From NCBI GenBank assembly GCA_022448455.1, contig JAKUUR010000002.1, positions 10,241 to 74,240 on the forward strand: 64,000 bases of DNA. The letters are read 5' to 3'. Positions 30,045-64,000 of this stretch are shown here, one piece after another. The translations under genes and the position numbers were made by a program. This stretch comes from Candidatus Thioglobus autotrophicus (lineage in GTDB: Bacteria; Pseudomonadota; Gammaproteobacteria; PS1; Pseudothioglobaceae). The notes below the pieces were generated by a model. It made no database searches and was not told the DNA's origin. It saw only the letters and a program-made list of their open reading frames with translations. The stretch's first letter is position 1, and every line of letters starts with the position of its first letter.

Positions 30045-30089
30045 CTATACATTTGTAAAAACTAGCGAGTATTTTAACAGCCAGTTCAA

Positions 30090-30518: not shown

Positions 30519-30607
30519 CTAACCTGAAATATTATATTTTTTTGTTGCATTAGGCCATAGACTGTAAATATAGTCAAGCAAAGCCCAATGAAATCTTCAA
30601 ATGACTA

Positions 30608-50402: not shown

Positions 50403-50435
50403 TATTGAGTCATCTGCATAAAAAAGTGAAAGTCA

Positions 50436-51701
50436 TCAACTAGCTTTTCTAATATTATTTATTTTTTTTTCAGGTAAATAAAGAACCATCGGTTGTTTTT
50501 CCCCTTCAACCACTGCCTTATCAATAATAACCTCTTTTGCACTTGTAGTTGACGGCATTTCATACATAGTATCCAATAATAGATTCTCCAAAATAGCTCG
50601 TAAGCCTCTAGCACCTGTTTTTCTTTTAACGGCAAGCTTTGCAATAGCTACTAATGCAGTTTTTCTAATCGTTAGCTTCACACCTTCGATTGCAAAAAAC
50701 TGTTGAAATTGTTTGACAACGGAATTTTTCGGTTTTGTAAGAATCTCTACCAAATCATCCTCATCAAGTGCACTAAGCGAAGTATGAACAGCTAGACGTC
50801 CAACCAGTTCAGGAATTAAACCAAATTTGATTAAATCGCCTGGCTCCAACAATCTGTATAGTTCAGCGAGTGTTTTTTCACTTTGCTCATCTTTGACATT
50901 TGCAGCAAACCCAATGCCAGTTGCTTTTTCAACTCGTCTGTCTATAACTTTTTCTAAACCATCAAATGCCCCGCCACATATAAACAATATTTTTGAGGTA
51001 TCGACGTCAATTGTTTCCTGGTTTGGATGCTTTCTACCACCCTGTGGAGGTACGGAAGCAATGGTACCTTCTATCAGTTTTAGCATTGCCTGCTGGACAC
51101 CTTCACCAGAAACGTCCCTAGTAATAGAAGGGGAGTCAGATCGGCGTGAAATTTTATCAATTTCATCAATAAAAATAATTCCTTGTTCAGCTTTGTTTGG
51201 ATCAAAGTCACACTTGGCGAGCAAGCTTTTAATAACATTCTCTACGTCGTCACCGACATAACCTGCTTCCGTTAATGTTGTCGCGTCAGCTACAGAAAAA
51301 GGAACATCCAGAAAACGCGCCAGGGTTTGCGCAAGAAGGGTCTTGCCACTACCAGTAGGACCAATCAGTAAAATGTTTGCTTTATCCAACTCAACTTCGT
51401 TGGAGATGTGATCAGTCTTTAAACGCTTATAGTGGTTGTAGACAGCGACTGACAAAACTTTTTTAGCATGAGATTGACCAATAACATATTCGTTCAAGAA
51501 ATTAAATAACTCTTTTGGAGTGTAATTCCAGTCCTGATGTTGGTCTTTTTTCTCTTTATTCGTTTGTTCTTGAACAAGGCTATAACAGGAATCTATACAT
51601 TCGTCACAAATGTAGACCCCAGGTCCGGCTATTAAGCGGGACACCTCATCTTTGTGTTTAGAACAAAATGAGCAATTCAGGTCTTGTGTATTTTGTGCCA
51701 T
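50436..51701 (-). CDS. clpX: ATP-dependent Clp protease ATP-binding subunit
   Basis: CSFC...ICDEC zinc finger, [23 protein letters not shown] motifs. Confidence 0.98.
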
Positions 51702-51715
51702 AGATAAACTAAAAG

Positions 51716-52312
51716 TTATCGTTTTGTAAGTACTTTGTCAATGAGTCCATATTTTACGGATTCACTAGCTGACATAAAATTATCTCGATCAGTGTCCTTT
51801 TGAATAGCCTTCATGCTTTGACCGGTATGTTTTTTTAGAATTGAATTTAACTTGTCTCTGGTCTTAAGAATCTCTTGAGCATGAATATCGATATCGCTGG
51901 CTTGACCAGAAAAACCTCCTAAAGGTTGGTGAATCATGCACCTGGAGTGTGGCAGAGAAAATCTTTTACCTTTTGCTCCAGCAGTTAGCAACAAAGTACC
52001 CATACTTGCAGCTTGGCCAATACAAAGTGTAGAAATATCAGGCTTGATGAACTGCATAGTGTCATAGATAGCTAAACCAGCTGTGACAGAACCGCCTGGT
52101 GAATTGATATATAAATGAATATCTTTATCGGGATTTTCAGATTCTAGAAAAAGAAGTTGAGCGACAACAACATTTGCCGCATAGTCCTCTATAGGGCCTA
52201 CCATAAAAACAACACGCTCCTTTAGTAATCGGGAATAGATGTCGTAAGCTCTTTCAGTTCTACCAGAACTTTCAATTACCATAGGGATTTGATGTAGGTT
52301 TTGTATTGACAT
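51716..52312 (-). CDS. clpP: ATP-dependent Clp protease proteolytic subunit
   Basis: [34 protein letters not shown] motifs. Confidence 0.98.
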
Positions 52313-52314
52313 AT

Positions 52315-53613
52315 TTAACTTTGTGGGTTCATAATTTCTTGAAAAGTCTTTTCAGTAACATTGACTTTGGCTTCAAGTGCAACATGTTTAGCTACAAGCT
52401 CTTCAACAACAATCGACTCAACACTTGCCAACCTTGAAGGGTCAGAGTTATGCCAATCAATCATTTGTTGCGCACTTTCACCATATTGCATAGACATTTC
52501 CTTTAGTTTAGCATCAACCTGCTCTTTTTCAGGCTTGATTTCTCTATCATTTGCAATTTTATTGACTAGTAGACCCAACTTTACTCTTCTTGAGGCCTCT
52601 TCTTGAAACATGGCTTCAGGAAAATTACCTTTTGAAGGTATACCCTGTTGTTCCATCCTTGCCTCCATATCTTGTTGCAACTTTATTGCCTCTGTACTAA
52701 TGCTGCCCTCGGGAACTTCAAAGTCATTTGCAGTTAAAAGCGCAGTAAAAGCAGCATCTTTGTTTTGCTGAACTACACGAGAACTTAACTCCATCTGCAT
52801 TTGGTTAGACATGTGACTTTTCATCGTCTCGAAATCTTTTTCACCATATTTTTTAGCAAATTCGTCGTCACGCTTCATTTCTTTGGGTGAACCCACTTTG
52901 TTAATCTTTACTTTAAATACAGCTTCCCTTCCAGCTAAATTTTCAACGTGATAATCTTCAGGGAATGTTGCTTTAACTTCTACCGTCTTGCCTGCAGAGA
53001 CATCAATGAGACCTCGCTCAAACCCTTCAATCATTGCACCACGTCCGAGAACGATTTCAAATCCCTCTGCCGCACCACCTTCAAATGACTCGCCATCTAG
53101 CAATCCCTCAAAATCAATTATCAAACGGTCACCATTTTTAGATTTACGTTTAACGGTTTTGTATTCAGTCGCCCTATCTTGTAAATCTTGCAATGCCCTT
53201 TCTTCATCTTCATCAGAAACTGTTGCACTTATTTGATCAATACTCAGGCTCGATAATGGTGCCACACTAACTTCAGGGTACACCTCAAACTCAATTGTAT
53301 AGCTAAAGTTATCACTATTTTCTGTGTCTACAGTGGTTAAAGAGGGTTGCGCAGCTGGAGAAACGTCAGCGTCTGCCAATGCCTCTGCCAACGTTTCACT
53401 CACTACCTCGTTTGTGGCATCTGCTTTGGCACTGGCACCGAAGCGTTGACGCAGAATTGTTGCTGGTATCTTGCCCTTTCTAAAACCATCAATGCGGACT
53501 TTTTTGGCAAGGCTTTGTAAAATAGTGTCCGTTTTCTGGTTGAAAGTATCTATAGGCAATTCAACTGTGAGTGATCTTTTTAACCCTTCAAGTGTGCTTA
53601 ATGAGGTCTTCAT
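52315..53613 (-). CDS. tig: Trigger factor
   Basis: GFRKGK ribosome-binding loop; FKBP domain (MIEGFE..L); upstream of clpP. Confidence 0.96.
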
Positions 53614-53674
53614 CTATCTAATCCGTATCTAGTATAAAAAAAACAAGAAATTATACAGGATTTTGCTGTCTAAT

Positions 53675-53699
53675 AAAAAAGGGCAGTTACTGCCCTTTT
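53675..53699 (-). terminator. Intrinsic terminator after the enolase-superfamily gene
   Basis: Minus strand reads AAAA GGGCAG TAA CTGCCC TTTTTT. Confidence 0.8.
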
Positions 53700-53715
53700 A
53701 GTAAAAAAAACTCAA

Positions 53716-54825
53716 CTAAAAGCGTGAGCCCATGTAGCTCACCTGGTACTGCGCCTGAGACAACCATTCTGGGTTTACCTCTAGACCCCAACCCGGTTTA
53801 TGATCCATTAATAGCCGACCTTCAACTATTTTGAAGCTTGGCGAAAATATATTGTCTTGCCAGGGGTAATAATCTAAACCCTCAATTGAAAACTCTAAGT
53901 ACTTACCTGCGTTAGGGATAGAGCCCATAATGTGTGCAGAAAACAATGTCACCAAGGATAAGTTAGCCGAATGTAGAGTTACAGGTAAGTGGGCTTGTTT
54001 GGCTAACTTAGCAACCTCTAAGGTGCGAGTAACACCTCCCATATAACAGACATCGGGCTGTACAATATTCACCACCTGGGTATCTATCATGTGCTTCCAG
54101 ATACGCATATCGTTATCCTGCTCTCCACCACTTATATCAATATTTAATGCATCTTTAACTTGACGGGTCCAGTCAGGTTCCCAGTATGGACAAGGTTCCT
54201 CGAAATGGCTGACACCATAATCTTGTAACATGTGTCCAACCTCAATAGCTTTAGCTGGCGTGTACGCGCTATTGGCGTCCACCAGTAGTGCTACATCATC
54301 ACCTAAAACCTTGCGCACTTGTTTCACAATAGCCTCTGTACGACCAGGCCATTGATCCAAGTCATGACCACATTCTCTCCCTACACGAAATTTGAAGGCT
54401 TTATAACCATACCTCTCTTTGAGATCTAGAAAACGTTCAGCTTCAGCTTCAGGGGTGATTTCACGCTGCATACTCGAAGCATACACTGGCACAGAGTCAG
54501 TATTACCACCCAAAAGTTGACACACACTCTTGTTAGCTTTCTTGGCGTGAATATCCCAAAGCGCAGTATCTAAGCCACACAAACCACGATAAAGATAGGT
54601 TCCAGGGAACTTATGTTCCCGCTCTAACACCTCTCGGTTTAAATCAGTTATGTCGAGACCACTCCAGCCTAGTACATGAGGAGCCACTTGTCGGTGTACT
54701 ACTTGAGCACTTATGTCGGCATTGTAGGCACTAGTTTGTCCCCAACCCTCATCACCTTCGTCGGTACGCACTCGGACCAAACCAATGTATTCGTTGGTAA
54801 AGGTTTCTATGCTAATAATTTTCAT
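53716..54825 (-). CDS. Enolase superfamily enzyme, mandelate racemase subgroup
   Basis: K.FKFRVG; metal ligands VDAN, FEEP, GGEQ; QPD...H acid/base dyad; YLEF; PGWG motifs. Confidence 0.9.
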   Translation of the reverse strand: MKIISIETFTNEYIGLVRVRTDEGDEGWGQTSAYNADISAQVVHRQVAPHVLGWSGLDITDLNREVLEREHKFPGTYLYRGLCGLDTALWDIHAKKANKSVCQLLGGNTDSVPVYASSMQREITPEAEAERFLDLKERYGYKAFKFRVGRECGHDLDQWPGRTEAIVKQVRKVLGDDVALLVDANSAYTPAKAIEVGHMLQDYGVSHFEEPCPYWEPDWTRQVKDALNIDISGGEQDNDMRIWKHMIDTQVVNIVQPDVCYMGGVTRTLEVAKLAKQAHLPVTLHSANLSLVTLFSAHIMGSIPNAGKYLEFSIEGLDYYPWQDNIFSPSFKIVEGRLLMDHKPGWGLEVNPEWLSQAQYQVSYMGSRF

Positions 54826-54850
54826 AATTAATCTCGGTTTAGCTAACTCT

Positions 54851-56482
54851 TTATTTAGATATATCAGCCAAAATCAGGTCCGAAGCCTTTTCACCCACCA
54901 TAATTGTAGCGGCATTAATATTACCACATATAAGCTGCGGGAATATTGAGGCATCTGCCACTCGAAGTCCTTCTATTCCATGCACTTTAAGATTACTATC
55001 AACGACATTTTTGAGCGGATCAGGGCCCATACAGCAAGTACAAGCAGGGTGGAAAACAGTCCATGCATTGTCTCTAATATCTTCTATCATTTGAGCGTCT
55101 GATTTACACTCAGGCCCAGGTCGAAACTCATCAAGAATGACCTTGCTAAAACTCTCAGTTTGAGCTAATTGCCGCAACAACTTGACGCCCTCTAACAAAT
55201 CTTGGACATCATCGTCATGAGATAGATAGTTAGGCTCAATTATTGGCGCAACAGTTGGATCACCACTCTTTATTCGAATCTGCCCTCGTGAATTTGATTT
55301 ACAGTTTGATACCCCTAACAACATAGCTGAAAAAGGGTCTGGACTTAGCATAGCGCGCCTTCCAGGCGACTCAAGAGTATAACTTACAGGTGAAAAATAA
55401 AGTTGAATATTCGGCCCTGTAAGTCCATCCCGAGTTCGCACAAAACCACCCGACTGGTTGACACTTAAACTTAACGGACCAGTCCTAGTCAAGACATATC
55501 GAATACCTTGCCATAACTTTCCCCACCAAGGTCTCAGCTGATTATTCAAGGTTCGCACTTTACTTTTATAAATATAGTTCACCCCAAGATGGTCCTGGAG
55601 GTTTTTTCCAACGGCAGGGCTGTCATGGATAACTGAAACATTAGCTTCCTTTAGAAGTGAATCCGGGCCTATTCCAGATAACTGAAGAAGTTGTGGTGAG
55701 TTTACTGCACCAGCGCTTAATATCACTTCACGCTTGGCATTTGCTTGGTAAAGTTTGCTTGCTTTTGTGTATTCCACGCCAACAGCGCGCTTACCTTCAA
55801 ATAGAATACGAGTGACGAGAGCCTTGGTAATCACGGTAAGGTTAGAACGCTTCATAACGGGACGTAAATAAGCTCGCGAAGCAGACATACGTTGTCCCTT
55901 ATACGTGGTTATCTGGTAATGACCAACACCTTCCTGAATCTCACCATTCATGTCACCATTAAAACTGATTCCTAATTCTTCAGCTGCTGAAACAAAAGTG
56001 TCACTCAAGGGATGCAGCTGATCTGTAACGTCTGAAACATTTAGTGGCCCTCTACTACCCCGATATTGGTCGTCGCCATGTTGCCAGGTTTCCATACGTT
56101 TAAAATAGGGAAGCAAATCATTGTATGACCAGCCAGGATTACCAGCCTTTTGCCAGTCGTCAAAATCTTGAGGATTGCCTCGAACATGGACCAAAGCATT
56201 AATCGAACTAGAACCACCCAATAATTTACCTCGTGGCCAATAACTGGAACGATTATTAGCGCCGGGGCTCGGCTCCGCCATGTACATCCAGTTAACCTCT
56301 TTTTGGTAGTAGGTTTTGCCATAGCCGATAGGCATTTGTACATAAAAACGACGGTCTGTACCACCTGCTTCTATGAGTAATACTTTGTTAGAAGAATCCT
56401 TGCTGAGCCTATTGGCAAGAACACAACCTGCTGAGCCTGCACCGATAACAATAAAATCGTAATTATTCAAAAGACCAGCCAT
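54851..56482 (-). CDS. GMC-family FAD oxidoreductase (choline/alcohol dehydrogenase-like)
   Basis: GAGSAG, RGKLLGGSSSIN, SAGAVNSPQLL.LSGIG, G.NLQDH, FHPACTC, GNINAATIM motifs. Confidence 0.92.
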   Translation of the reverse strand: MAGLLNNYDFIVIGAGSAGCVLANRLSKDSSNKVLLIEAGGTDRRFYVQMPIGYGKTYYQKEVNWMYMAEPSPGANNRSSYWPRGKLLGGSSSINALVHVRGNPQDFDDWQKAGNPGWSYNDLLPYFKRMETWQHGDDQYRGSRGPLNVSDVTDQLHPLSDTFVSAAEELGISFNGDMNGEIQEGVGHYQITTYKGQRMSASRAYLRPVMKRSNLTVITKALVTRILFEGKRAVGVEYTKASKLYQANAKREVILSAGAVNSPQLLQLSGIGPDSLLKEANVSVIHDSPAVGKNLQDHLGVNYIYKSKVRTLNNQLRPWWGKLWQGIRYVLTRTGPLSLSVNQSGGFVRTRDGLTGPNIQLYFSPVSYTLESPGRRAMLSPDPFSAMLLGVSNCKSNSRGQIRIKSGDPTVAPIIEPNYLSHDDDVQDLLEGVKLLRQLAQTESFSKVILDEFRPGPECKSDAQMIEDIRDNAWTVFHPACTCCMGPDPLKNVVDSNLKVHGIEGLRVADASIFPQLICGNINAATIMVGEKASDLILADISK

Positions 56483-56622
56483 GTTTAAGTCAAATAATGA
56501 CTATATAAAATTCACACTATTGTATAAGTAATCTTTAATCATTGCTTAAATATTTTTTTAGCATTATTCACTTACAAAAAAAATTACATTTGTTCAGTGT
56601 GAAAATAAGATAAACTAAGATG

Positions 56623-56645
56623 AGCCCTCACGTGTGAGGGTTTAA
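56623..56645 (+). promoter_or_regulatory. GC-rich hairpin with T-rich tail in the leader of the ABC substrate-binding gene
   Basis: AG CCCTCA CGTG TGAGGG TT followed by TTTAATGTTTTT, ending about 30 nt upstream of ATG 56671 (RBS AGGAG). Confidence 0.45.
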
Positions 56646-56670
56646 TGTTTTTAAAATCTTAGGAGAAAAA

Positions 56671-57687
56671 ATGAAACTAATAAATAAAGTATTAGCTGTC
56701 TCAGCTATTTCACTCAGTCTTATGCCTGCATTAGCCAGTGCTGACTGTGGAAAAGCAAGGCTGGCTGATTTTGACTGGAATAGTGCAAATGTCCATACTG
56801 GCATTGTACAATTTATTCTTGAGCATGGCTATGGCTGTGAAGTTGAGACGACAAGAGGAAGTACGACACCTATTATGGCTGCTCACTATGATAGCCAACT
56901 AGATATCGTTACTGAGCTTTGGTATGACAATATTGTAACCCAGTATGATGCTGTTGAAGCGTCTGGGGTGATTAGAAATATTGGAATCAACACACCAGAC
57001 TCTCAGCAAGCGTTTTACGTGGACAGAAATACAGCTGATAAGTACAGCATAAAATCTGTATTAGATATGAACAATCCAGAAATTGCTGCATTGTTTAGTG
57101 ATCCAGAAAACCCTGATATGGGTAGAATGGTAAGCTGTATTGGAGGCTGGACTTGCTACACTATTAACCATGTCAAGCAGCGTGTCTATGGACTAGATAA
57201 GTTCTATACTAACTTTGATCCAGGTTCTAGTGGCGCATTAGCTGCAGAAATTGCAGGCGCATTTGCTAAAGATCGACCGATCTTTACCTACTACTGGGCA
57301 CCAACAGCATTGATGGGTAAGGTTGACTTAGTAAGATTAGTTGAGCCACCTTACGATGCAGCATGTTGGGGAGCAATGATGGATGTTGTTGAAGACATAA
57401 AGGCTAACGGAAAAGATGTATACAAGCCTACTTGTGCAACTGAATACAAAGACATGTCTCTAGATAAGTCTGTACTGACTGCATGGGCGGATACGCATCC
57501 AGAAGAGACAGCTTTCTTAGAAGCATATAGCATACCAACCGCAACGGTGAACAAGCTGCTAGCTTTCTATGAAGGCGAGGCTGACGGCGATATGGAGCTT
57601 CTTGCAATGGAATACTTGCAGAATAATTCTGAATGGAAGTCTTGGGTTTCAGCAGAAGTTGCTGCCAAGGTTTCAGGAGCACTATAA
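56671..57687 (+). CDS. ABC transporter substrate-binding protein, glycine betaine/proline/histidine (ProX/OpuAC) family
   Basis: Signal peptide (ASA-DC); DFDWNSA, ILEHGYGC, ELW, CIGGWTC, DPGSSGAL, YYWAPT motifs. Confidence 0.88.
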   Translation: MKLINKVLAVSAISLSLMPALASADCGKARLADFDWNSANVHTGIVQFILEHGYGCEVETTRGSTTPIMAAHYDSQLDIVTELWYDNIVTQYDAVEASGVIRNIGINTPDSQQAFYVDRNTADKYSIKSVLDMNNPEIAALFSDPENPDMGRMVSCIGGWTCYTINHVKQRVYGLDKFYTNFDPGSSGALAAEIAGAFAKDRPIFTYYWAPTALMGKVDLVRLVEPPYDAACWGAMMDVVEDIKANGKDVYKPTCATEYKDMSLDKSVLTAWADTHPEETAFLEAYSIPTATVNKLLAFYEGEADGDMELLAMEYLQNNSEWKSWVSAEVAAKVSGAL

Positions 57688-57701
57688 GCTAGATTTAATA
57701 T

Positions 57702-57733
57702 AAAAAAAAGAGCTCATTCGTGAGCTCTTTTTT
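57702..57733 (+). terminator. Intrinsic terminator/stabiliser hairpin between SBP and permease
   Basis: AAAAAA GAGCTCA TTCG TGAGCTC TTTTTT (UUCG tetraloop, U-tract). Confidence 0.85.
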
Positions 57734-57754
57734 CTTATTTTCTGAATTAGAATC

Positions 57755-58759
57755 ATGATAAAAAAGTTATTCACATATTTGGCCTTACCAGTTATTTTTA
57801 TTTGGCTGTTGATAACGAGCTTTAATGCTTCAAGATTTAGACCAGATAGCGCTGCGGAACTTTTAACGGATGCAAGCTGGCTATATAATTGGCCAAGGTG
57901 GCTAGACATCCCATTGATGAAATGGATCAATGATTGGTTTAGAGTCTTTAATCAAGAGTACGGAATGTACTTCGAGGCAGTCAATAATTTCCTTCTTGGA
58001 GCAATCCTTTCCCTGAAGAAATTCTTAATGATGTTGCCATGGCCACTTGTGATTGCTCTCGTTGTAGCGATTGTTTTCTTTTCCAGTGGTCGAAAACTAG
58101 GTACCACCGTTTTTGTTGGAATTTGTACATTTTTTATTGGCTTTCTTCACCCAAGATTTTGGGACAAAGCGATTGAAACAACCTCTATTATGATAATTGG
58201 AATACTGTTCTGTATTTTAATTGGAATACCCTTAGGAATAGCCATGTCTCGAAGCATTAGAGTTCGAAATGCCACTCTTCCTGTTCTTGACTTAATGCAG
58301 ACAATACCAAGTTTTTGTTATCTCATTCCTGGAATTATGCTTTTTGGATTAGGCGCTGTACCGGCAATCATTGCAACAGTTATTTATGCGGTTCCACCTT
58401 TAGTGCGTTTAACAGACCTTGGAATTCGCTTAGTTGACACTGAAGTCATTGAAGCAGCTGAAGCATTCGGAGCGAGTAAAAAACAAAAGTTACTAGGGGT
58501 TCAACTACCACTAGCACTTCCTAATATTATGCAGGGAATCAACCAATGCACAATGATGGCACTAGCTATGGTTGTTATTGCTTCTATGATTGGAACCAGA
58601 GGTCTTGGTGATGAAGTTTTACTTGGACTTCAACAGCTTAACGTCGGCAAGGCAACTGAAGCAGGACTTGCGATTGTACTTTTAGCAATTGTTCTAGATA
58701 GAATTACTCAAGCCTACGGTCAAAAAGTCCAAGATAGAAATAAGCCACCAGAAAAATAG
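57755..58759 (+). CDS. ABC transporter permease, ProW-like
   Basis: PVLDLMQTIPSFCYLIP, EAAEAFGAS..Q.L..VQLPLALPNIMQG EAA loop. Confidence 0.92.
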   Translation: MIKKLFTYLALPVIFIWLLITSFNASRFRPDSAAELLTDASWLYNWPRWLDIPLMKWINDWFRVFNQEYGMYFEAVNNFLLGAILSLKKFLMMLPWPLVIALVVAIVFFSSGRKLGTTVFVGICTFFIGFLHPRFWDKAIETTSIMIIGILFCILIGIPLGIAMSRSIRVRNATLPVLDLMQTIPSFCYLIPGIMLFGLGAVPAIIATVIYAVPPLVRLTDLGIRLVDTEVIEAAEAFGASKKQKLLGVQLPLALPNIMQGINQCTMMALAMVVIASMIGTRGLGDEVLLGLQQLNVGKATEAGLAIVLLAIVLDRITQAYGQKVQDRNKPPEK

Positions 58760-58769
58760 CCTTTAATCA

Positions 58770-59801
58770 ATGTCAAAAATAGAAATAAGAAATATTTATA
58801 AGATATTTGGAAACCATCCTGATCAAATTTTACCCATGGTAAAAGAGGGTGCAAATAAAGAGCAGGTCATGGAAGAAACTGGCCACACTGTTGGCCTAGA
58901 CAATGTCTCTATATCAGTCAAAGAAGGTGAAATTTTTGTTTGTATGGGATTGTCTGGTTCAGGAAAATCAACTTTAATTAGACATATTAATAGACTCATT
59001 GACCCTACTGCAGGTCAAGTTACAGTTGACGGTGTTGATGTACTAAGTTTAGATGACAAGGAAATATTAGATTTCCGAAAAAAGACAATGAGTATGGTTT
59101 TCCAGCGTTTTGGACTTTTTCCTCATAAAACAATTATTCAAAATGTTGCTTATGGCCTTGAAATACAGAAAGTACCTGAGGATCAGAGAATAGAAATTGC
59201 CCAAGGCCAAATAGATTCGGTTGGATTACAAGGTTTTGAGAATCAATACCCTGCTCAACTATCTGGAGGCATGCAGCAAAGGGTCGGTCTAGCAAGAGCT
59301 CTTGCAACAGACCCTCAAATCCTTTTAATGGACGAAGCCTTTAGTGCATTGGACCCTCTAATTAGAAGTGATATGCAAAAACAATTAATAGAGCTTCAAT
59401 CTAAACTCAAAAAAACCATTGTCTTTATTACTCATGATCTTGATGAATCCCTGAAATTAGGGGACCATATAGGAATATTAAATGGCGGAAGATTAGTTCA
59501 AGTCGGTCGCCCAGAAGATATTATCATGAATCCTGCTGATGACTACGTTAAAGCATTTGTTAAGGATGTTAATCGCTCTAAAGTGTTGAGAGCTCAAACA
59601 GTTATGACTAAAAAGGATCAGTTTGATACAACAAATATCAACCCATCCACTATATACAAGATAGATGAAAATACTGTGATTGAAGAGATCATCCCTAAAG
59701 TATTAAGAGAGAGATGCACTATGAATGTAGTCGATAAGAGTGGCAATACAAAAGGGTATATTACATCTGATGAGTTATCTAAGGCTTTAACGAAACATTA
59801 A
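58770..59801 (+). CDS. ABC transporter ATP-binding protein, ProV-like
   Basis: GLSGSGKST, LSGGMQQRVGLARAL, DEAFSALDP, ITHD motifs; short CBS-like tail. Confidence 0.94.
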   Translation: MSKIEIRNIYKIFGNHPDQILPMVKEGANKEQVMEETGHTVGLDNVSISVKEGEIFVCMGLSGSGKSTLIRHINRLIDPTAGQVTVDGVDVLSLDDKEILDFRKKTMSMVFQRFGLFPHKTIIQNVAYGLEIQKVPEDQRIEIAQGQIDSVGLQGFENQYPAQLSGGMQQRVGLARALATDPQILLMDEAFSALDPLIRSDMQKQLIELQSKLKKTIVFITHDLDESLKLGDHIGILNGGRLVQVGRPEDIIMNPADDYVKAFVKDVNRSKVLRAQTVMTKKDQFDTTNINPSTIYKIDENTVIEEIIPKVLRERCTMNVVDKSGNTKGYITSDELSKALTKH

Positions 59802-59806
59802 GTTAG

Positions 59807-60595
59807 ATGACTCAAAATAAGCCTCCTGGCAAAAACATTATAATTTCAGCTGCTGCCGATGGAATTGGTTGGAGTATAGCCAGTTTATCTTTAGATAAAG
59901 GCTACAACGTTTATTTGTCAGACATCAATCAAAAAAGAATTGATGAAATTAACGAGCATCCATTGATAAACGAAAAACTATTTATAGACAATGTCGATGC
60001 CAAAAATCCAAACTCTGTAGAAAAATATTTTTATTCACTGAAAGAAAGAATTGCAAGCATTGATGCCCTCATTAATAATGTCGGCATAGCCGGACCAACC
60101 GGACCGATTGAAAGTCTATCGATTTCAGACTGGAGAAACACAATAGACATTAATCTTAACAGTCATTTTTATTTTACTAAACACTCTATACCTTTGTTAA
60201 AAAATAATAAAGGTGGATCCATTATCAATATCTCTTCAACTGCGGGCTTGTTTGGACTTCCTCTCAGAACACCTTATGCTGCAAGTAAGTGGGCTGTTAT
60301 TGGTGTGACTAAGTCACTTGCAATGGAACTGGGGGAATTTAACATAAGAGTCAACGCTATTTGCCCAGGATCGGTATCGGGAGATAGGATGAAAAGAGTC
60401 ATAGAAGCAAAAGCAAAATCTACAGGGGTTTCAGAAGAAGAATTGCAAAAAGATCATGAATCAATGGTGTCACTTAAGACTTTTGTGAGCAAAGAAGACA
60501 TTGCCAATATGGCCTTATTCTTACTTTCAAATGAAGCCCATAAAATATCTGGTCAAGTCATGACTGTAGACGGTAACACCGAAAGAATGAACTAA
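59807..60595 (+). CDS. Short-chain dehydrogenase/reductase
   Basis: SAAADGIG, NNVG, SS, YAASK catalytic motif, VNAICPG. Confidence 0.92.
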   Translation: MTQNKPPGKNIIISAAADGIGWSIASLSLDKGYNVYLSDINQKRIDEINEHPLINEKLFIDNVDAKNPNSVEKYFYSLKERIASIDALINNVGIAGPTGPIESLSISDWRNTIDINLNSHFYFTKHSIPLLKNNKGGSIINISSTAGLFGLPLRTPYAASKWAVIGVTKSLAMELGEFNIRVNAICPGSVSGDRMKRVIEAKAKSTGVSEEELQKDHESMVSLKTFVSKEDIANMALFLLSNEAHKISGQVMTVDGNTERMN

Positions 60596-60612
60596 CTACA
60601 GGGATGTAGTTA
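60593..60612. terminator. Hairpin between convergent SDR and cytochrome c4 genes
   Basis: TAACTACA GGGA TGTAGTTA; AT-rich stem, no clear U-tract. Confidence 0.4.
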
Positions 60613-60648
60613 TTCAGTTGTAATGCTTAAAAGTTACCAGCAAAGGAT

Positions 60649-61296
60649 TTAGTGAAGACCAGCAATATACTCGGCTAAAGCTTCAATTTCAATAGTTGTC
60701 AGACCTTTGGCAACATTTCTCATCATCCCTTCATAATCATTATCTCTAGCAACCTCGTCAGAACCAGTCTGTTCATTGATAGAATATTGACGGAATGCCT
60801 TTAACTGTGCGGCTATATATTCAGCATGCTGAGCACTAAGAGCAGGAAATTTTGCACTCGGAATACCTAAACCCTTAGGACCATGGCAAGCAATACAAGC
60901 AGTGGTTTTCGTATCTTTCTTACCACCAAGATAAATCTTTCGAGCTAATTCGATTGTTTTTTCATCTGCCTTAGCGCTATTTTCACTTATAGTTTGAATT
61001 GAGTAATATGCTGCAATATCCATCATATCTTGTTCCGATAGTAAGGATGCGACACCCCCCATTATTGCATTGTCTCTTGCACCTGATTTAAATTCCTGTA
61101 GTTGCTTCAAAATATAACCCTCACCTTGACCGGCAAGCTTAGGAAAATTTGGCATGGTGCTATTACCAGCAAGACCATGGCAACCCATACATATTGCAGA
61201 TTTAGCTTGACCTGCCTCAGCATTTCCAGAGGCTAGACTAGTTGCGCTAAGAGTTGCAAGTACAATTGATACAAAAATAATAATGCTCTTTTTCAT
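60649..61296 (-). CDS. Di-heme cytochrome c4
   Basis: Signal peptide; CMGCH and CIACH; PKLAGQ...Y..KQL and P.LS.QHA.Y...QL repeats. Confidence 0.93.
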   Translation of the reverse strand: MKKSIIIFVSIVLATLSATSLASGNAEAGQAKSAICMGCHGLAGNSTMPNFPKLAGQGEGYILKQLQEFKSGARDNAIMGGVASLLSEQDMMDIAAYYSIQTISENSAKADEKTIELARKIYLGGKKDTKTTACIACHGPKGLGIPSAKFPALSAQHAEYIAAQLKAFRQYSINEQTGSDEVARDNDYEGMMRNVAKGLTTIEIEALAEYIAGLH

Positions 61297-61379
61297 TCTA
61301 AATCTCCAAAAAATTCCACGAAGTTATACTTGAATATTAACGGTTCCATTAACTTTTATTTATCAAGATAACGGAAAAA

Positions 61380-61700
61380 CTACTCTCTAATCCCTTGAGT
61401 AGAAAGGTATTCGGCAATAGAGTCCTCAAACCCTTCTGCCATTGGAGCCATAGCATTCATAATCGCATTTTGACGTTCGCCTGACTGAAATTGCTCTAAT
61501 TGTTGCACTATCCATTCGGCATCTCTGCCAGCTAGCGAAGGAACATCTTCATCGGTTGAATTCCCTCCCGGACCGTGGCAACTAGAACAGCCCAAAGCTT
61601 CAAACATAGCCTCACCTTCGCTCTTTGCTTCTTCTGATATAGAGCCCAGTGAAAAAGCTAATGCCATTATAGAAAGGATTAACAATAAAATCTTTTTCAT
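61380..61700 (-). CDS. Monoheme class I cytochrome c (c553/c554-like)
   Basis: Signal peptide; CSSCHG; PSLAG; IMNAM axial Met. Confidence 0.9.
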   Translation of the reverse strand: MKKILLLILSIMALAFSLGSISEEAKSEGEAMFEALGCSSCHGPGGNSTDEDVPSLAGRDAEWIVQQLEQFQSGERQNAIMNAMAPMAEGFEDSIAEYLSTQGIRE

Positions 61701-61785
61701 TACGTATGCACTTTAGCTTTCTATTTATTTTCGTTAAATTATACACACATCTGTTTTATCCAGTGTGAACAGGATTCATGGAGAG

Positions 61786-62571
61786 CTATTTCCCTTTCCA
61801 TTTGGGAGGACGCTTCTCAGAAAAAGCAAGCGGTCCTTCCTTGGCATCCTCAGATTTGAGCATTTTTTGATAAGCCTTAATTTGACCAGAGCGCATAGTT
61901 TCATACGCAGATTCTAAATCCATTTGATCTGTCTCTCTAATGACGGCTTTAATTGCCGCCAATGAAAGGGGGGCAGACTGAGCGATTTCATGCGCCCACT
62001 CAATGGCTTGCTTTTTTAACATTTTTAATGAACAACTTCTGTTCACCAAGCCATATTTTTTTGCCTCGTCTACACCCATTCTCCTACCGGTCATAAGCAT
62101 TTCCATCGCAACCGCTCTAGGCAAGCGACGTGGCAATCTCAAAACTCCTCCGCTATCAGGAATAATCCCTAGAGTAGCTTCAGGCACAAAAAACTCAGCT
62201 GTGTTGGCTGCAATAATTAGGTCAGCTGCAAGTGCCAACTCAAAACCACCTCCAACTGCTAAGCCATTAACTGCAGCAATAACAGGCTTATCCAAATCCC
62301 ACAATTCAGTAAGTCCAGCAAAACCACCCGGGCCAAAGTCTGCATCAACTGCCTCCCCCTCAGATGCTGCTTTTAAATCCCAACCACCACAAAAAAACCG
62401 TTCACCTGCACCGATAATAATAGCTGCCCTTAAATCAGCATCATCTCTAAAAGAGATGAAGGCATCGCCAAGCGCGTGACTTGTTGTCGCATCAATCGCA
62501 TTAGCTTTAGGGCGATCAAGCGTAATTAGCAGCACTTCGTTATACACCTCACAAGTGACACTTTTTTTCAT
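61786..62571 (-). CDS. caiD: Crotonase-family hydratase, carnitinyl-CoA dehydratase (CaiD-like)
   Basis: [53 protein letters not shown] motifs. Confidence 0.8.
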
Positions 62572-62610
62572 AAAATCTTCCTTAATTTTGAGATTATTAT
62601 CATGTTACTA

Positions 62611-64000
62611 CTAATTCAGTTTAACCAAAGCATCAACGGCAATTGCACCTTTTCCCTGAGGCAAAACTAGTAGCGGATTTATATCAAATTCAATGACTTC
62701 ATTTGAATTAATTAAATCGACCGCTGACATCACAGCATCAATCACAGCATCAATATCTCCAGCTGAGTGTCCACGATAACCTTCAAGTATCGGATATAAC
62801 TTCAACTCAGAAAGTGCTTCCAAAACACTATTTCTCTCAACCGGTAACAGCAATGGAATACTGTCGCTTAATAACTCAACCAAAACTCCGCCACTACCAA
62901 TTATCAAATATTTTCCAAATAAAGGGTCACAATTGGCACCGATAATTAATTCTGCTATAGCGCCCTCTATCATTTCTTCAACCAATAATGAAGGTCCAAT
63001 TTGTAGTAGCTCAGATACTGCTAATTTGAGCATCTCGGCATCTTTAATGTTAACTCTAATAGCCCCTGAATCACTCTTATGAACTAAGGCTTCACTTGAC
63101 ACCTTGACAGTGACTGGATAGCTCAACTTTTCTGCAGCCCTCAATGCACCTTCAATACTAGAAACTAACCCACCTTGAGGTATTGATAAGCCATACTTTG
63201 CCAATAATCGCTTTCCATCAAACTCAGTAAGCGTTTTATTGGTTTGCATTTTGCTTGAAACTGGAATGGAAACCTCTATAGGAGCTGAAGAGGTTCCATT
63301 AAAAGCTTGACCACACCTGTATGAATGATGTAGCGATTTTAGACAGGAATCCAAACCAATCATTGGCGCAATGCCACGTTTTTGGCATTCATCAATGATC
63401 CTTTTAGGCATACAATCGGCCATAGAAGCGAGAACGATAGCTTTTTTTCCTGTCTCTGTCGCTGCATCACACAGTGCATAGAAAGTATTATCCCAATCTT
63501 GTTGGCTAATTTTGTCAGTTCTTGGCCAATCTAACAGTAGCATGGTTGCGGCAAAGTCTCCACTCATCATTTGTTTAAAACAAGCCGCTGTACGATGACG
63601 ATCTCCCCAAACAAAAGTATGGTAATCTAAGGGATTATCTACTTCAACAAACTCATTCAATGTGTTTTGAATTCGCTCCTTGTGGTCATTTTTAAGACCT
63701 GAAAAACAGATATCTAAACCATCAATTAAATCAGCCATCATTCCCGCTTCTCCTCCTGAACAGCTCATTGATGCCACACCATTATGATCAATTGTGCCCA
63801 AAATGCTGAGCAACTTTAAAGTCTCTAAAAACTCAGGAACGGTATCAACTCTTGCTATTCCGAGACGATCAAATAAAACATCAAACAATTGATCTGCTCC
63901 CGTCAATGAACTAGTGTGGCTAAGAGCAATTTTGGAAGAGGTATTTGTTCGGCCAGTTTTAATAACGACGATAGGTATCTTTTTTTCTAACGCTCGGTGT
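62611..64000 (-). CDS. ADP-forming acyl-CoA synthetase (CoA-binding + ATP-grasp); 5' end outside the window
   Basis: Frame stays open from 63906 to 64000 (…KKIPIVVIKTGRT…IALSHTSSLTGADQ…), with the SH phospho-His motif; SCSGG, NPLD, HKSDSGAI, VEEMI, EFDINPLLV ATP-grasp motifs. Confidence 0.9.
   Translation of the reverse strand, partial: HRALEKKIPIVVIKTGRTNTSSKIALSHTSSLTGADQLFDVLFDRLGIARVDTVPEFLETLKLLSILGTIDHNGVASMSCSGGEAGMMADLIDGLDICFSGLKNDHKERIQNTLNEFVEVDNPLDYHTFVWGDRHRTAACFKQMMSGDFAATMLLLDWPRTDKISQQDWDNTFYALCDAATETGKKAIVLASMADCMPKRIIDECQKRGIAPMIGLDSCLKSLHHSYRCGQAFNGTSSAPIEVSIPVSSKMQTNKTLTEFDGKRLLAKYGLSIPQGGLVSSIEGALRAAEKLSYPVTVKVSSEALVHKSDSGAIRVNIKDAEMLKLAVSELLQIGPSLLVEEMIEGAIAELIIGANCDPLFGKYLIIGSGGVLVELLSDSIPLLLPVERNSVLEALSELKLYPILEGYRGHSAGDIDAVIDAVMSAVDLINSNEVIEFDINPLLVLPQGKGAIAVDALVKLN

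Follow-up and report, generated by a model that had tools for sequence, protein, structure and literature searches.

A twelve-gene island around two divergent operons

The window analysed here, a 64,000-nucleotide stretch of Candidatus Thioglobus autotrophicus DNA, holds six open reading frames that lie exactly where an earlier, sequence-only reading had placed them, and Pfam and NCBIfam confirmed the family of every one. When sister contigs are considered together with the sequence, the setting of these six genes is a 12-gene island bounded by tig and yihA and built of three modules: an importer (module A), a CoA module (module B) and a GMC-enolase pair (module C). The cluster as first drawn was therefore right in its six genes but too tight at its right-hand boundary, since genes of related function run to the end of the window and past it, where the sister contigs carry genes for an ACAD and a betainyl-CoA-thioesterase-like protein. 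The features are as follows.

53716..54825, minus strand: enolase-superfamily protein, 369 aa (Pfam MR_MLE_N and MR_MLE_C)
53724..53742, minus strand: weak terminator-like hairpin, 7-bp stem at 53742-53724, overlapping the last enolase codons (consensus scan only)
54851..56482, minus strand: GMC flavoprotein oxidoreductase, 543 aa, BetA paralogue, 25 nt upstream of the enolase gene (GMC_oxred_N/C)
56483..56670, no strand: divergent intergenic region, 188 bp, separating the GMC and binding-protein genes
56621-56644, plus strand: stem-loop and T-run just ahead of the binding-protein ribosome-binding site (hairpin scan)
56671..57687, plus strand: periplasmic substrate-binding protein, DmpX-like, OpuAC fold (PF04069)
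57704..57733, plus strand: hairpin with 13-bp stem in the gap between binding-protein and permease genes (hairpin scan)
57755..58759, plus strand: ABC permease, ProW/ChoW type (BPD_transp_1; TIGR03416 266 bits, ProW 244 bits)
58770..59801, plus strand: ABC ATPase, ProV/ChoV type (TIGR01186 proV subfamily, 372 against a cut-off of 327)
59807..60595, plus strand: classical SDR, 262 aa (adh_short)
60649..61296, minus strand: dihaem cytochrome c4 (Cytochrom_C, twice)
61380..61700, minus strand: monohaem cytochrome c (Pfam)
61786..62571, minus strand: crotonobetainyl-CoA hydratase, CaiD orthologue (62% identity to E. coli CaiD; NF002936)
62611..64000, minus strand: ADP-forming acyl-CoA synthetase, cut by the window end (frame open to base 64000; full length 684 aa in sister contigs)

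The SDR gene starts 5 nt past the ATPase stop in a ProXWV-like operon, as had been described, and the gene caller used on the sister contigs starts the permease 8 codons later. The strand and order of the GMC and enolase genes also stood, but the terminator said to close them needs qualifying: the hairpin 3′ of the enolase gene is a weak match to the terminator consensus only, and the scan returned 11 such sites where 6.6 +/- 2.7 were expected, a count not above expectation. The two cytochrome c genes, which stand between module B and the remaining island and are linked to the enolase gene in Thioglobaceae only, are probably housekeeping neighbours outside the pathway. The pair presumably resembles an ancestral cc4-cc5-yihA neighbourhood and, if so, the adjacency of modules B and C in Thioglobaceae could reflect two independent insertions.

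The GMC-enolase pair is a widely conserved orphan module

We counted linkage across 83 enolase loci, 46 of which were well flanked (at least 6 kb on both sides). A GMC gene lies in the enolase flank at 39 of the 83 loci and 28 of the 46, in both Alpha- and Gammaproteobacteria, making the pair a widely conserved orphan module. GMC, enolase and ALDH genes form an overlapping operon, in that order, in P. inhibens and a cluster in R. pomeroyi. An ALDH often accompanies the pair, and models for betaine-aldehyde and aminobutyraldehyde dehydrogenases gave these ALDHs their highest scores. Linkage of the enolase gene to the SDR (7 of the 46 loci) and to the importer (6 of the 46) is confined to Thioglobaceae. 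The sequence-only reading had staked itself in part on the SDR and enolase being linked in other genomes; that linkage holds within this clade and fails outside it, as does that of the importer. Two relatives, L001 and L009, keep SDR-GMC-enolase and have no importer, and elsewhere the enolase is accompanied by PotD-, Opp- or MFS-type transporters. Some members of the enolase family have no GMC neighbour and are found in a tight CGL-enolase-CBS operon, or alongside HIBADH, Zn-ADH and a second enolase.

That the GMC oxidoreductase is unlike BetA held up, but the N-terminus on which this had partly been argued did not. MPIGYGKTY spans residues 50-58; the true N-terminus is MAGLLNNYDFIVIGAGSAGCV, in which the canonical GxGxxG motif for FAD binding is found, and alignments with homologues and solved structures begin at residue 5-7. 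Alignment with relatives marks MPIGYGKT as a signature of this GMC subfamily. The protein passes the cut-off of the PRK02106 ‘choline dehydrogenase’ subfamily (619 > 605) but falls short of the TIGR01810 betA equivalog (532 < 732); it is 42% identical to E. coli BetA, and 59% and 47% identical to the enolase-linked GMCs of R. pomeroyi and P. inhibens, respectively. These scores support the view that it is not a bona fide BetA, and marine BetA-like GMCs have been stated to be unassigned (Lidbury 2015). As in choline oxidation by BetA/BetB, the flavoenzyme is of the BetA-containing subfamily and would follow an alcohol to aldehyde to acid logic, and its relatives elsewhere pair with a betaine-aldehyde-dehydrogenase-like ALDH. 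It differs in its distinct loop signature, in the lack of betB, betI or betT at the locus, and in the enolase-superfamily gene that always lies directly after, or close to, the GMC gene.

The enolase-superfamily protein has the metal ligands D183/E209/E235, together with K145-x-R147 (in FKFRVG), N185, Q256-P257-D258 and H285, and a D258/H285 dyad. The MR-subgroup features first read from the sequence, K-x-R in FKFRVG and the QPD/H dyad, are thus present, and the active-site and capping-loop residues are invariant across all contexts in 12 homologues of 52 to 93% identity. Arg69, Lys72, Arg80, Arg147 and the MR-like Asn185 are likewise invariant. We take the D183/E209/E235/D258/H285 spacing to be identical to that of D195/E221/E247/D270/H297 in mandelate racemase. 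The protein is ~63% identical to PDB entries 3T8Q, 3U4F, 3TCS and 3T9P, four structures that carry no functional name and are probably isofunctional with it. It is at most about 30% identical to any enzyme of known function, and no NCBIfam equivalog scores near its cut-off; the best named matches are gluconate, galactonate and arabinonate dehydratases, the top one at 133 bits against a 750-bit cut-off. Our literature search found no published function or experiment for the family. These features support its placement in an MR-type family without assigned function, characterised by K-x-R and a His/Asp dyad.

MR-subgroup acid-sugar dehydratases such as galactonate dehydratase resemble this enzyme in fold, in Mg2+ ligands and in having a His/Asp dyad on strands 7 and 6, but have K-x-K, whereas here the second Lys is Arg; its partners, moreover, are flavoprotein/aminoaldehyde-type oxidoreductases and nitrogenous-solute transporters, not sugar-pathway genes. 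HpbD (4R-hydroxyproline betaine 2-epimerase), the analogy first drawn, is likewise an enolase-superfamily enzyme in a betaine-type catabolic context beside a ProX-family transporter. HpbD reportedly epimerises with two Lys bases, from K-x-K and a Lys on strand 6, in contrast to the K-x-R and single His/Asp base here, and our enzyme scores only 77 bits against the HpbD-related cis-3-hydroxy-L-proline dehydratase model. With K-x-R and one base, the racemisation first proposed as one option is unlikely, and the active site argues for beta-elimination instead.

A DmpX-like importer with abundant binding-protein mRNA

The best solved relative of the binding protein is RnDmpX (7YLE; E 1.7e-28, 30% identity). 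Its predicted pocket, W36/T65/W84/Q113/W160/T161/Y207/W209, aligns with W35/T64/W84/E113/W152/A153/Y200/W202 of RnDmpX, sharing six of eight residues; the four Trp are all kept, as is the Tyr that cannot be mutated without loss of binding. By this comparison the protein is closest to DMSP-binding DmpX and not to a hydroxy-betaine binder, which argues against the hydroxy-betaine-type ligand originally envisaged. Characterised DmpX binds DMSP and has little affinity for carnitine or glycine betaine (PMC10030565); if that specificity is true here, the importer would not feed module B. Li et al. (2023, PMC10030565) include Ca. Thioglobus itself among the organisms that carry DmpX and give very high transcript levels. 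In common with the DmpXWV systems of Ruegeria pomeroyi, Roseovarius nubinhibens and SAR11 (PMC10030565; 7YLE), the importer has the X-W-V three-gene architecture, the OpuAC fold, the four-Trp cage with Thr64 and Tyr200 equivalents, and very high transcript abundance. It differs in its 30% identity, in the changes Glu113 to Gln and Ala153 to Thr, in the SDR gene at the 3′ end of its operon, and in a genomic context that suggests gamma-butyrobetaine or carnitine as an alternative predicted ligand.

Expression was gauged by RNA word depth per contig, a crude measure, in runs X1, X2 and X4. Depth in X1 was flat and DNA-like. In X2 and X4, respectively, it was 22,000-31,000 and 2,400 over the binding-protein gene, about 2,000 and 165 over the permease, 190-900 and 60-130 over the ATPase, 40-77 and 9-15 over the SDR, and 2-47 and 0-5 over the GMC and enolase genes, placing binding-protein mRNA ~1000-fold above these last two, its neighbouring catabolic genes. 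Depth drops about 10-15-fold across the hairpin at 57704..57733, which is likely an attenuator or mRNA stabiliser. The stem-loop upstream of the binding-protein gene keeps its position in 8 loci while its sequence differs, and it matched no Rfam family. The allele history of the binding protein differs from that of the flanking genes.

A carnitine-type CoA module lies beyond the SDR gene

The hydratase matches E. coli CaiD over all 261 residues and NF002936 at 390 bits (next family, 243), and its gene lies near that of the enolase in Thioglobaceae, Kiloniella, SAR324 and a deltaproteobacterium. In Kiloniella, a BKACE-CDH/TE-ACAD-ACS-ECH order adjoins GMC-LysR-enolase-ALDH. Our ACAD is 64% identical to the Kiloniella enzyme, the synthetase 43% identical to its carnitine-cluster counterpart, and the thioesterase 54% identical to the C-terminal domain of the Kiloniella carnitine dehydrogenase, matching NF005716 positions 336-491 (E 4e-49). 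By homology, then, the genes past the SDR read as a CoA module of the carnitine/gamma-butyrobetaine type, and the carnitine-like substrate listed among the early candidates gains support from them. S. meliloti reportedly has such a cluster, described by Bazire et al. in 2019, a study cited in PMC12482172, for the CoA-dependent conversion of gamma-butyrobetaine via L-carnitine to glycine betaine, and Kiloniella shares its layout. The ACAD, ADP-forming synthetase and hydratase follow Kiloniella’s order. Carnitine dehydrogenase carries a homologue of the thioesterase as a fused domain; here, by contrast, the thioesterase is free-standing and the SDR is the only candidate dehydrogenase. Modules B and C are each incomplete at this locus: neither the 64-kb window nor the ~6 kb of extended contigs contains an ALDH, a HADH-type carnitine dehydrogenase, a BKACE or a thiolase.

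The SDR carries NNVG and YxxxK motifs and Asp39 after beta2, the last of which suggests NAD+ as cofactor. Among NCBIfam families it scores highest against FabG and 3-hydroxybutyrate dehydrogenase, with no family reaching its cut-off, and a 42% identical Thalassospira homologue lies directly upstream of BKACE. It is probably a 3-hydroxy-acid or 3-hydroxyacyl-CoA dehydrogenase, likely serving the CoA module.

A proposed three-module island for methylated onium solutes

What the data show directly is which genes are present and their orthology, how often they are linked, which residues are conserved and how abundant the transcripts are. On this basis we favour, with doubt and confidence about evenly balanced, a 12-gene island that handles methylated onium solutes (DMSP, gamma-butyrobetaine, carnitine-type), has this stretch at its centre and consists of three separable modules; we infer what the importer binds, what the SDR does, in which order the steps of module C run and which group leaves. 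Module A would be a DmpXWV-type high-affinity ABC importer whose four-Trp cage holds the onium head group, and whose binding-protein mRNA, bracketed by hairpins, accumulates far above the operon remainder. Its ligand would be a small onium carboxylate, for which similarity points to DMSP and context to gamma-butyrobetaine or carnitine. Module B, half of it past the window, comprises the thioesterase, ACAD, ADP-forming synthetase and CaiD hydratase, and would activate gamma-butyrobetaine or crotonobetaine and carry it to L-carnitinyl-CoA. The 3-hydroxy oxidation that this set lacks most likely falls to the NAD-type SDR, on carnitine or carnitinyl-CoA, and a housekeeping thiolase or distant BKACE, with the betainyl-CoA-type thioesterase, could complete the route to glycine betaine. 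In module C, the BetA-like GMC would oxidise the primary alcohol group of a solute, probably a charged one (a cation or zwitterion), acting elsewhere with the betaine-aldehyde-dehydrogenase-like ALDH and here alone or with a distant one. The enolase would bind the resulting carboxylate on Mg2+, His285/Asp258 abstracting the alpha-proton and the beta-substituent (hydroxide, amine/ammonium, sulfonium or sulfite) being expelled. This cationic-alcohol model does not obviously account for the GMC-free enolase contexts.

The original proposal was a single pathway for one hydroxylated zwitterion, with ProXWV uptake, GMC oxidation, racemisation or dehydration by the enolase and a final redox step by the SDR. 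The divergent operons 188 bp apart, the close SDR, families all plausible for betaine chemistry and an arrangement kept in 6-8 Thioglobaceae genomes speak for it, but clade-limited linkage, importer-less relatives, other transporters beside the enolase elsewhere, the ~1000-fold spread in transcripts and the separate allele history of the binding protein now make it unlikely.

We also find it improbable that the island is dedicated to DMSP, with DmpXWV import, a DddX-type synthetase yielding DMS and acryloyl-CoA, an AcuH-like hydratase forming 3-hydroxypropionyl-CoA, a thioesterase releasing 3-HP, a DddA-like GMC or the SDR oxidising 3-HP to malonate semialdehyde, and the ACAD as acryloyl-CoA reductase. 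The DmpX-like pocket fits this scheme, as do the GMC family membership of the 3-HP dehydrogenase DddA and the best NCBIfam match of the ACAD, acryloyl-CoA reductase AcrC (264 bits against 194 for CaiA). DddX (7CM9) is the top solved match of the synthetase, at 231-249 bits, about equal to the 4HB-/3HP-CoA ligases. Like DddX and DddX-like ATP-dependent DMSP lyases (PMC8163506, PMC13543886), the synthetase belongs to the ADP-forming acyl-CoA synthetase superfamily and retains the phospho-His; it has a likely Trp at the 391 position and an acidic residue at 432, and ABC betaine-type transporters, which adjoin dddX in some genomes, lie near. Yet the synthetase scores 231 bits to DddX and 228 to 4HB-CoA ligase, Glu432 is Asp and Phe435 is Asn, and its orthologue sits in the carnitine dehydrogenase/BKACE cluster with the orthologous Kiloniella ACAD-ACS-ECH set. 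The thioesterase is a carnitine-dehydrogenase-type domain, and the scheme has no role for the enolase. The CaiD-like hydratase scores only 135 bits against 5XZD, which we take to be AcuH.

A sulfonate reading of the GMC-enolase pair is similarly improbable: DHPS or cysteinolic acid would be oxidised to sulfolactate or cysteate, the enolase, as a sulfo-lyase that needs no PLP, would release pyruvate and sulfite (with NH3 as well from cysteate), and a TauE/SafE permease would export the sulfite. At 7 Thioglobaceae loci GMC-enolase has a divergent TauE/SafE gene beside it, and at L006 the pair follows a DeoC/LacD aldolase, HIBADH, ALDH, Dak1/2, a TIM-barrel isomerase and a second enolase, recalling sulfo-sugar pathways. 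In Alphaproteobacteria the pair is found with MocR regulators and DAO-type flavoenzymes, and the PALP/CBS protein of the CGL-enolase-CBS operon, in another clade, scores 255 bits against a cysteate synthase model. The invariant Arg and Lys residues with Asn185 would suit a 2-substituted 3-sulfo acid, and sulfite departs without a general acid, which fits the single base of the enolase. However, the partner ALDH scores 479 bits as betaine-aldehyde dehydrogenase against 372 as SSADH or SLA-dehydrogenase, sulfite-handling genes were not found in the R. pomeroyi or P. inhibens clusters, the window has no TauE at the equivalent site, TauE-family permeases are generic, and the Trp cage of the importer suits a methylated onium, not a primary ammonium or sulfonate.

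Least probable is an ordinary choline dehydrogenase beside a choline or glycine betaine importer and a chance-placed, unrelated acid-sugar dehydratase, since the PRK02106 score and the dehydratase matches that favour it are outweighed by the betA equivalog shortfall, low identity to E. coli BetA, the absence of betB or betI from the window and extended contigs, GMC-enolase adjacency in two classes (one overlapping operon included) and the 133-bit score.

Under the three-module reading, an abundant marine SUP05-type bacterium has a DMSP/betaine-type importer, very highly transcribed, next to a CoA pathway of the carnitine type. The widely conserved orphan GMC-enolase pair, sited next to that importer, is therefore a good target in the search for a new osmolyte-degrading reaction.

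Layout of the island

Pfam and NCBIfam upheld every family that the sequence-only reading had assigned to six open reading frames, and the positions it gave were exact.

Genes of the island within the window (coordinates, strand, product, basis)
53716–54825, minus, enolase-superfamily protein, Pfam and NCBIfam
54851–56482, minus, GMC oxidoreductase, Pfam and NCBIfam
56671–57687, plus, OpuAC-type binding protein, Pfam and NCBIfam
57755–58759, plus, permease, Pfam and NCBIfam
58770–59801, plus, ATPase, Pfam and NCBIfam
59807–60595, plus, short-chain dehydrogenase (SDR) starting 5 nt past the ATPase stop, Pfam and NCBIfam
61786–62571, minus, crotonase-family hydratase, family search

These six genes are the middle of a larger island, in which the minus strand then carries two cytochromes c, the hydratase and an ADP-forming acyl-CoA synthetase whose reading frame is still open at window base 64000. 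Gene order beyond the window edge was read from contigs of the same organism that encode an identical hydratase, and there the remainder of the synthetase (684 aa), an acyl-CoA dehydrogenase (ACAD, 385 aa) and a 4HBT_2 thioesterase (177 aa) precede the unrelated GTPase YihA. The order of the island is therefore yihA / thioesterase-ACAD-synthetase-hydratase-cytc-cytc4 / SDR-ProV-ProW-ProX / GMC-enolase / tig. Its nearest relatives among genomes are Gammaproteobacteria of the SUP05, Thioglobus and Pseudothioglobus type.

We read this arrangement as a composite of three modules, and put the chances of that reading at about even. Module A, the importer, would bring in an onium carboxylate; module B, the CoA enzymes, would together with the SDR carry gamma-butyrobetaine, crotonobetaine or carnitine towards glycine betaine at the CoA level; and module C, the GMC-enolase pair, would oxidise a charged alcohol and then eliminate its beta-substituent.

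Two details of the earlier annotation changed. The peptide MPIGYGKTY, taken for the GMC N-terminus, is residues 50–58 of a protein whose true start is MAGLLNNYDFIVIGAGSAGCV; this carries a normal FAD-binding motif, and the alignment with solved GMC structures runs from residue 7. The terminator thought to close the enolase gene reduces to a weak match with a 7-bp stem, in a scan whose total was no higher than chance; a promoter scan of the window likewise gave matches at chance level.

The two cytochrome c genes resemble a housekeeping cc4/cc5/yihA neighbourhood. For that reason, and because their linkage to the enolase is found only in Thioglobaceae, they were set aside as electron acceptors for the GMC. 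Contigs of two sequencing runs, X1 and X2, join 60595/60596 straight to 60649/60650 and leave out the 53-nt spacer (60596–60648) where the SDR and cytochrome c4 genes converge; because the DNA-like run X1 shows the gap too, it looks like a population indel. On the other side of the island, 46771–53613 holds tig-clpP-clpX-hflX-lon, with GTPase HflX between clpX and lon, an order kept in 11–12 Thioglobaceae loci. Further off, a cluster at 1004–7471 contains two Rieske-type oxygenase genes (1004–2374 and 5477–6589, the latter resembling glycine betaine monooxygenase GbcA in its N-terminal half, 160 bits), a D-2-hydroxyacid dehydrogenase, glycerate kinase, an EutQ-like cupin, glyoxalase I and a DMT-family transporter, and is followed by a glycerophosphodiester phosphodiesterase (7533–8258). 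It may be another small-solute catabolic locus.

Expression and linkage of the modules

Public metatranscriptome contigs were mapped on 52300–64000, with the word depth of the contigs as a crude measure of expression.

Contig word depth by gene in runs X2 and X4
Binding protein: X2 22,360–30,757; X4 ~2,400
Permease: X2 ~2,000; X4 ~165
ATPase: X2 194–896; X4 59–134
SDR: X2 40–77; X4 9–15
GMC and enolase: X2 2–47; X4 0–5
Hydratase / synthetase: X2 4–64; X4 2–46
tig: X2 12–178; X4 10–61

The DNA-like run X1 gave a flat profile (depth 2–22). By this crude contig-depth measure, the binding protein and the GMC-enolase pair differ by some three orders of magnitude; the importer is expressed on its own, not together with GMC-enolase, and its operon ends weakly in the SDR. 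A hairpin with a 13-bp stem (57704–57733) sits at the first depth step, where RNA depth falls 10–15-fold. Directly before the binding-protein ribosome-binding site lies a stem-loop with a T-run (56621–56644), which is kept in eight loci with differing sequences (stems across loci include GCCCTCAC/GTGAGGG, ATCCT/AGGAT and ATCCAC/GTGGAT). The two hairpins flanking the binding-protein coding region may stabilise a processed mRNA. Rfam gave no match across the window and no credible match in the importer leader.

We counted which genes lie near the enolase in 83 enolase-anchored loci, and in the subset of 46 whose flanks each extend for 6 kb or more.

Genes near the enolase (all loci; subset with long flanks)
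GMC: 39/83; 28/46
Hydratase: 17/83; 14/46
Synthetase: 14/83; 13/46
Aldehyde dehydrogenase (ALDH): 13/83; 12/46
DAO-type flavoenzyme: 17/83; 12/46
MocR regulator: 17/83; 13/46
ProX: 8/83; 6/46
SDR: 9/83; 7/46

The importer, GMC, enolase and SDR (53716–60595) had been proposed to form one osmolyte pathway. Adjacent as these genes are in the window, the importer and SDR are both confined to Thioglobaceae among the 83 loci, and we consider the single pathway improbable. Two loci (L001 and L009) keep the SDR beside GMC-enolase with the importer absent, on which evidence the SDR is part of the catabolic island and the importer is the variable insert.

The importer resembles DmpXWV

Among solved structures, the one closest to the binding protein is 7YLE (E 1.7e-28), the DMSP-specific binding protein RnDmpX, with E. 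coli ProX and TmoX far behind. The chain numbering of RnDmpX agrees with that in Li et al. 2023 (PMC10030565), and its pocket W35/T64/W84/E113/W152/A153/Y200/W202 maps onto W36/T65/W84/Q113/W160/T161/Y207/W209 in the window. Thus 6/8 residues of the DMSP pocket are identical, including all four Trp and Tyr200, with E113 replaced by Q and A153 by T, in proteins that share only 30% identity over 297 positions. SAR11 DmpX is itself ~35% identical to R. pomeroyi DmpX, yet bound DMSP at 100 nM; Y200 mutants lost binding; R. pomeroyi DmpX had little affinity for carnitine, betaine, choline or TMAO; and DmpX homologues occur in Ca. Thioglobus, Oceanospirillales and SAR324, with transcripts reaching 700% of marker genes (PMC10030565). 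Taken with the 7YLE match and the pocket map, these findings suggest that the importer is most simply a DmpXWV relative and belongs to a known kind. In view of the E113Q and A153T substitutions and of the genomic context, gamma-butyrobetaine and carnitine are further candidate ligands.

Among the matches listed in the homologue search, identity to the binding protein was at least 95%, with no distant contexts among them; plasmid-borne matches belong to a family with diverse onium ligands, as in a hut-like cluster in Agrobacterium. In a SUP05 single-cell genome the binding protein is 94% identical to that of the window and the other island genes just 63–92%, whereas in the closest relative it is just 80% identical and the other genes 88–96%. 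This pattern suggests that the binding-protein gene (56671–57687) alone underwent allele exchange or diversifying turnover.

The CoA module and the SDR

Along its full length of 261 residues the hydratase shares 62% identity with E. coli CaiD, and its best NCBIfam model is crotonobetainyl-CoA hydratase NF002936 (390 bits, below the cut-off of 500; next family 243). The thioesterase matches positions 336–491 of the carnitine 3-dehydrogenase model (E 4e-49) and is 54% identical to the C-terminal domain of the Kiloniella carnitine dehydrogenase; ACAD and synthetase are 64% and 43% identical to their Kiloniella counterparts. All four enzymes lie together on contigs of the same organism, at 43–64% identity to the Kiloniella set. 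Kiloniella shares with a MAG labelled Halopseudomonas the order beta-keto acid cleavage enzyme (BKACE), carnitine dehydrogenase/thioesterase, ACAD, synthetase and hydratase, directly followed by SBP_bac_3, GMC, LysR, enolase, ALDH and an Opp-type ABC system. The same five-enzyme set in S. meliloti has reportedly been shown to turn gamma-butyrobetaine into glycine betaine. By tblastn against the window and six contigs or loci (L091–L093, L002, L016 and L009), we found no BKACE and no HADH domain, the thioesterase domain alone being matched; the HADH-type dehydrogenase and BKACE may lie elsewhere in the genome. Module B is of a known kind, the cluster leading from gamma-butyrobetaine or carnitine to glycine betaine, in a variant that locally lacks the canonical dehydrogenase and BKACE.

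An alternative is that this is an island for DMSP, DddX and 3-hydroxypropionate, with the synthetase as a DddX-type DMSP lyase, given that DddX is the top solved match of the synthetase. Its 231 bits are, however, no better than the 228 bits of 4-hydroxybutyrate-CoA ligase. His292 is kept; the catalytic Glu432 is replaced by Asp and Phe435 by Asn, and Trp391 aligns only by way of a 4-residue insertion. We regard this alternative as quite improbable. An ‘acetate-CoA ligase’ that adjoins the R. pomeroyi GMC/enolase cluster was rejected as a synthetase orthologue, being just 25% identical.

The SDR is a classical member of its family (motifs SAAADGIG, NNVG, ISSTAG and YAASK; Pfam adh_short, E 8e-48), and the Asp that follows beta2 suggests a preference for NAD+. 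Its nearest NCBIfam families are 3-hydroxybutyrate dehydrogenase and FabG, below every cut-off. One homologue, in Ensifer (47% identical), adjoins a GlxA-family regulator; another, in Thalassospira marina (42%), lies directly upstream of BKACE, behind an ABC importer. In place of the HADH-type enzyme, the SDR would oxidise the 3-hydroxyl of carnitine or carnitinyl-CoA. The T. marina plasmid cluster itself (L088, 2909–10754) comprises a GntR regulator, a LIV-type ABC importer, SDR, BKACE and a divergent 3-hydroxyacyl-CoA dehydrogenase, and looks like an uncharacterised pathway of beta-hydroxy-acid and beta-keto-acid cleavage.

The GMC-enolase pair

From its supposed N-terminus the GMC was said not to look like BetA, and this held: it is 42% identical to E. 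coli BetA, failed the equivalog TIGR01810 (532 < 732), passed the cut-off only for the broad subfamily PRK02106 (619 > 605), and has no bet operon context of betB, betI or betT. No BetB-like ALDH was found in the window or extended contigs, where the GMC’s neighbours are the enolase and the importer. Enolase-linked GMCs of R. pomeroyi and P. inhibens are 59% and 47% identical to it, the MPIGYGKT loop being common to all. On P. inhibens pPGA1_262, GMC, enolase and ALDH form an overlapping operon alongside a LysR regulator and an MFS transporter; the R. pomeroyi megaplasmid carries LysR-GMC-DAO-PotD-type ABC-DAO-MocR / enolase / ALDH. The highest-scoring models for the partner ALDHs are those of betaine-aldehyde and aminobutyraldehyde dehydrogenases. 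Unassigned BetA-like GMCs have been noted in marine heterotrophs, two of them in R. pomeroyi (Lidbury et al.). A literature search by locus tag (SPOA04xx/SPOA039x and PGA1_262p002x) found nothing on these clusters, a published R. pomeroyi transporter screen did not cover the GMC/enolase cluster, and the homarine operon homABCDER was rejected as a match to it, the gene set being different.

GMC-linked enolases occur in Thioglobaceae, Oceanospirillaceae (esterase/PepS15-GMC-enolase with an Opp-type ABC system), Kiloniella, Dongia, Pseudolabrys, Pelagibius and others. SAR324 and a deltaproteobacterium carry HalD-HIBADH-ACAD-ACS...ECH-ZnADH-enolase, with a second enolase present. Because the enolase is repeatedly and independently co-located with a CaiD-type hydratase, synthetase and ACAD in three lineages, we argue for a functional link between modules C and B. 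In another context the enolase belongs to a tightly packed CGL-enolase-CBS operon, and a molybdopterin oxidoreductase is often close by. In these loci (L021–L038, L083 and L096–L098), from another gammaproteobacterial clade and a MAG labelled Planctomycetota, an enolase 67–70% identical and with the same active site lies between genes like those of cystathionine gamma-lyase (CGL) and cystathionine beta-synthase (CBS) at gaps of 11–30 nt, the oxidoreductase (~700 aa) usually adjoining; L097 also has split CaiB/DddD-family CoA-transferase and M24/creatinase-like open reading frames.

The enolase has MR_MLE_N and MR_MLE_C domains and the motifs first noted, FKFRVG (K145-x-R147), QPD (D258) and H285. 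We aligned twelve sequences from most genomic contexts, 52–80% identical to the window enolase. Invariant throughout are the metal ligands D183, E209 and E235, together with N185, D258, H285, K145 and R147, the capping-domain loops G27-W-G-Q30, R69-E-H-K72 and Y77-L-x-R80, and, in the EFSIEGxDYYPW motif, E311, S313-I-E-G316, Y319, Y320 and W322 (F312 and P321 nearly so). Judged by these residues, invariant across contexts, the family looks isofunctional.

The spacing of metal ligands and dyad is that of mandelate racemase (MR), and on it rests the assignment of H285 to strand 7 and D258 to strand 6. The enolase shares the two-domain fold, metal ligands and His/Asp dyad of the MR subgroup and differs from it in K-x-R for K-x-K, the second Lys (the MR opposite-face base) being the invariant Arg147. 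It also differs from the HpbD/cis-3-hydroxyproline dehydratase type (NF043002, 77 bits against a cut-off of 500) in having a His/Asp dyad, not a strand-6 Lys. Racemisation, one of the activities first proposed, is opposed by K145-x-R147 and the single His/Asp base, which make a two-base racemase unlikely. Because of the K-x-R, the single base and the MR-like Asn185, we infer that the chemistry is most likely alpha-proton abstraction followed by beta-elimination; the many invariant aromatic and basic residues fit an onium distal group as well as an anionic one. Glycine betaine has no beta-leaving group, and we therefore rejected it as the metabolite unifying all enolase contexts, for want of a mechanistic basis.

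A sulfonate route from DHPS or cysteinolate through sulfolactate or cysteate to pyruvate and sulfite is a further alternative; we rate its probability as low as that of the DMSP island. A TauE/SafE permease gene (245 aa) is divergent from GMC-enolase in seven Thioglobaceae loci (L004, L005, L009, L013, L015, L016 and L076), with the GMC gene on one side of it and the binding-protein or SDR gene on the other. It is absent from the window at 56483–56670, and the same organism has a TauE gene ~5 kb past the island (L091, 560–1348). That an ordinary BetA and a sugar dehydratase are adjacent by chance is highly unlikely given the GMC scores and the recurrent pairing. In one locus (L006) the enolase is surrounded by a sugar-like gene set.

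Implications

Much of the C, N and S passing from phytoplankton to bacteria travels as methylated onium compounds and sulfonates, from which the climate-relevant gases DMS and TMA also arise. The orphan GMC-enolase(-ALDH) module has solved structures, a wide distribution (thousands of metagenomic homologues, roseobacter model strains, soil Alphaproteobacteria) and no reaction assigned. Its enolase is ~63% identical to four structural-genomics structures bearing no functional name, and the many marine metagenomic homologues (67–93% identical) have generic names only. Searches on the four PDB codes returned nothing relevant, a search joining enolase superfamily, carnitine and GMC returned unrelated papers only, and the family goes unmentioned in the portions covered of a PNAS 2025 paper on glycine betaine and of its proteomics supplement.

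We tentatively propose, as an unlikely candidate, that GMC-(ALDH)-enolase is a PLP-independent route for breaking a charged algal osmolyte, with the enolase a new C-N, C-S or C-SO3 beta-lyase. The flavoenzyme would make the carboxylate, and the enolase would free trimethylamine, dimethyl sulfide or sulfite along with a central metabolite, for example pyruvate, fumarate or acrylate. Candidate substrates would be homoserine betaine (via aspartate betaine), beta-alanine betaine, DMSP, D-carnitine, cysteinolic acid (via cysteate) and DHPS (via sulfolactate). If true, this would be a new enzyme superfamily for marine TMA, DMS or sulfite output in the SUP05 clade, roseobacters and Oceanospirillaceae, and would give a function to the four orphan crystal structures. 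As module B has neither the canonical dehydrogenase nor the cleavage enzyme, it suggests that glycine betaine is reached by a variant route, and assigning the GMC-enolase(-ALDH) reaction would close an annotation gap in marine and soil osmolyte turnover and widen the chemistry of the enolase superfamily.
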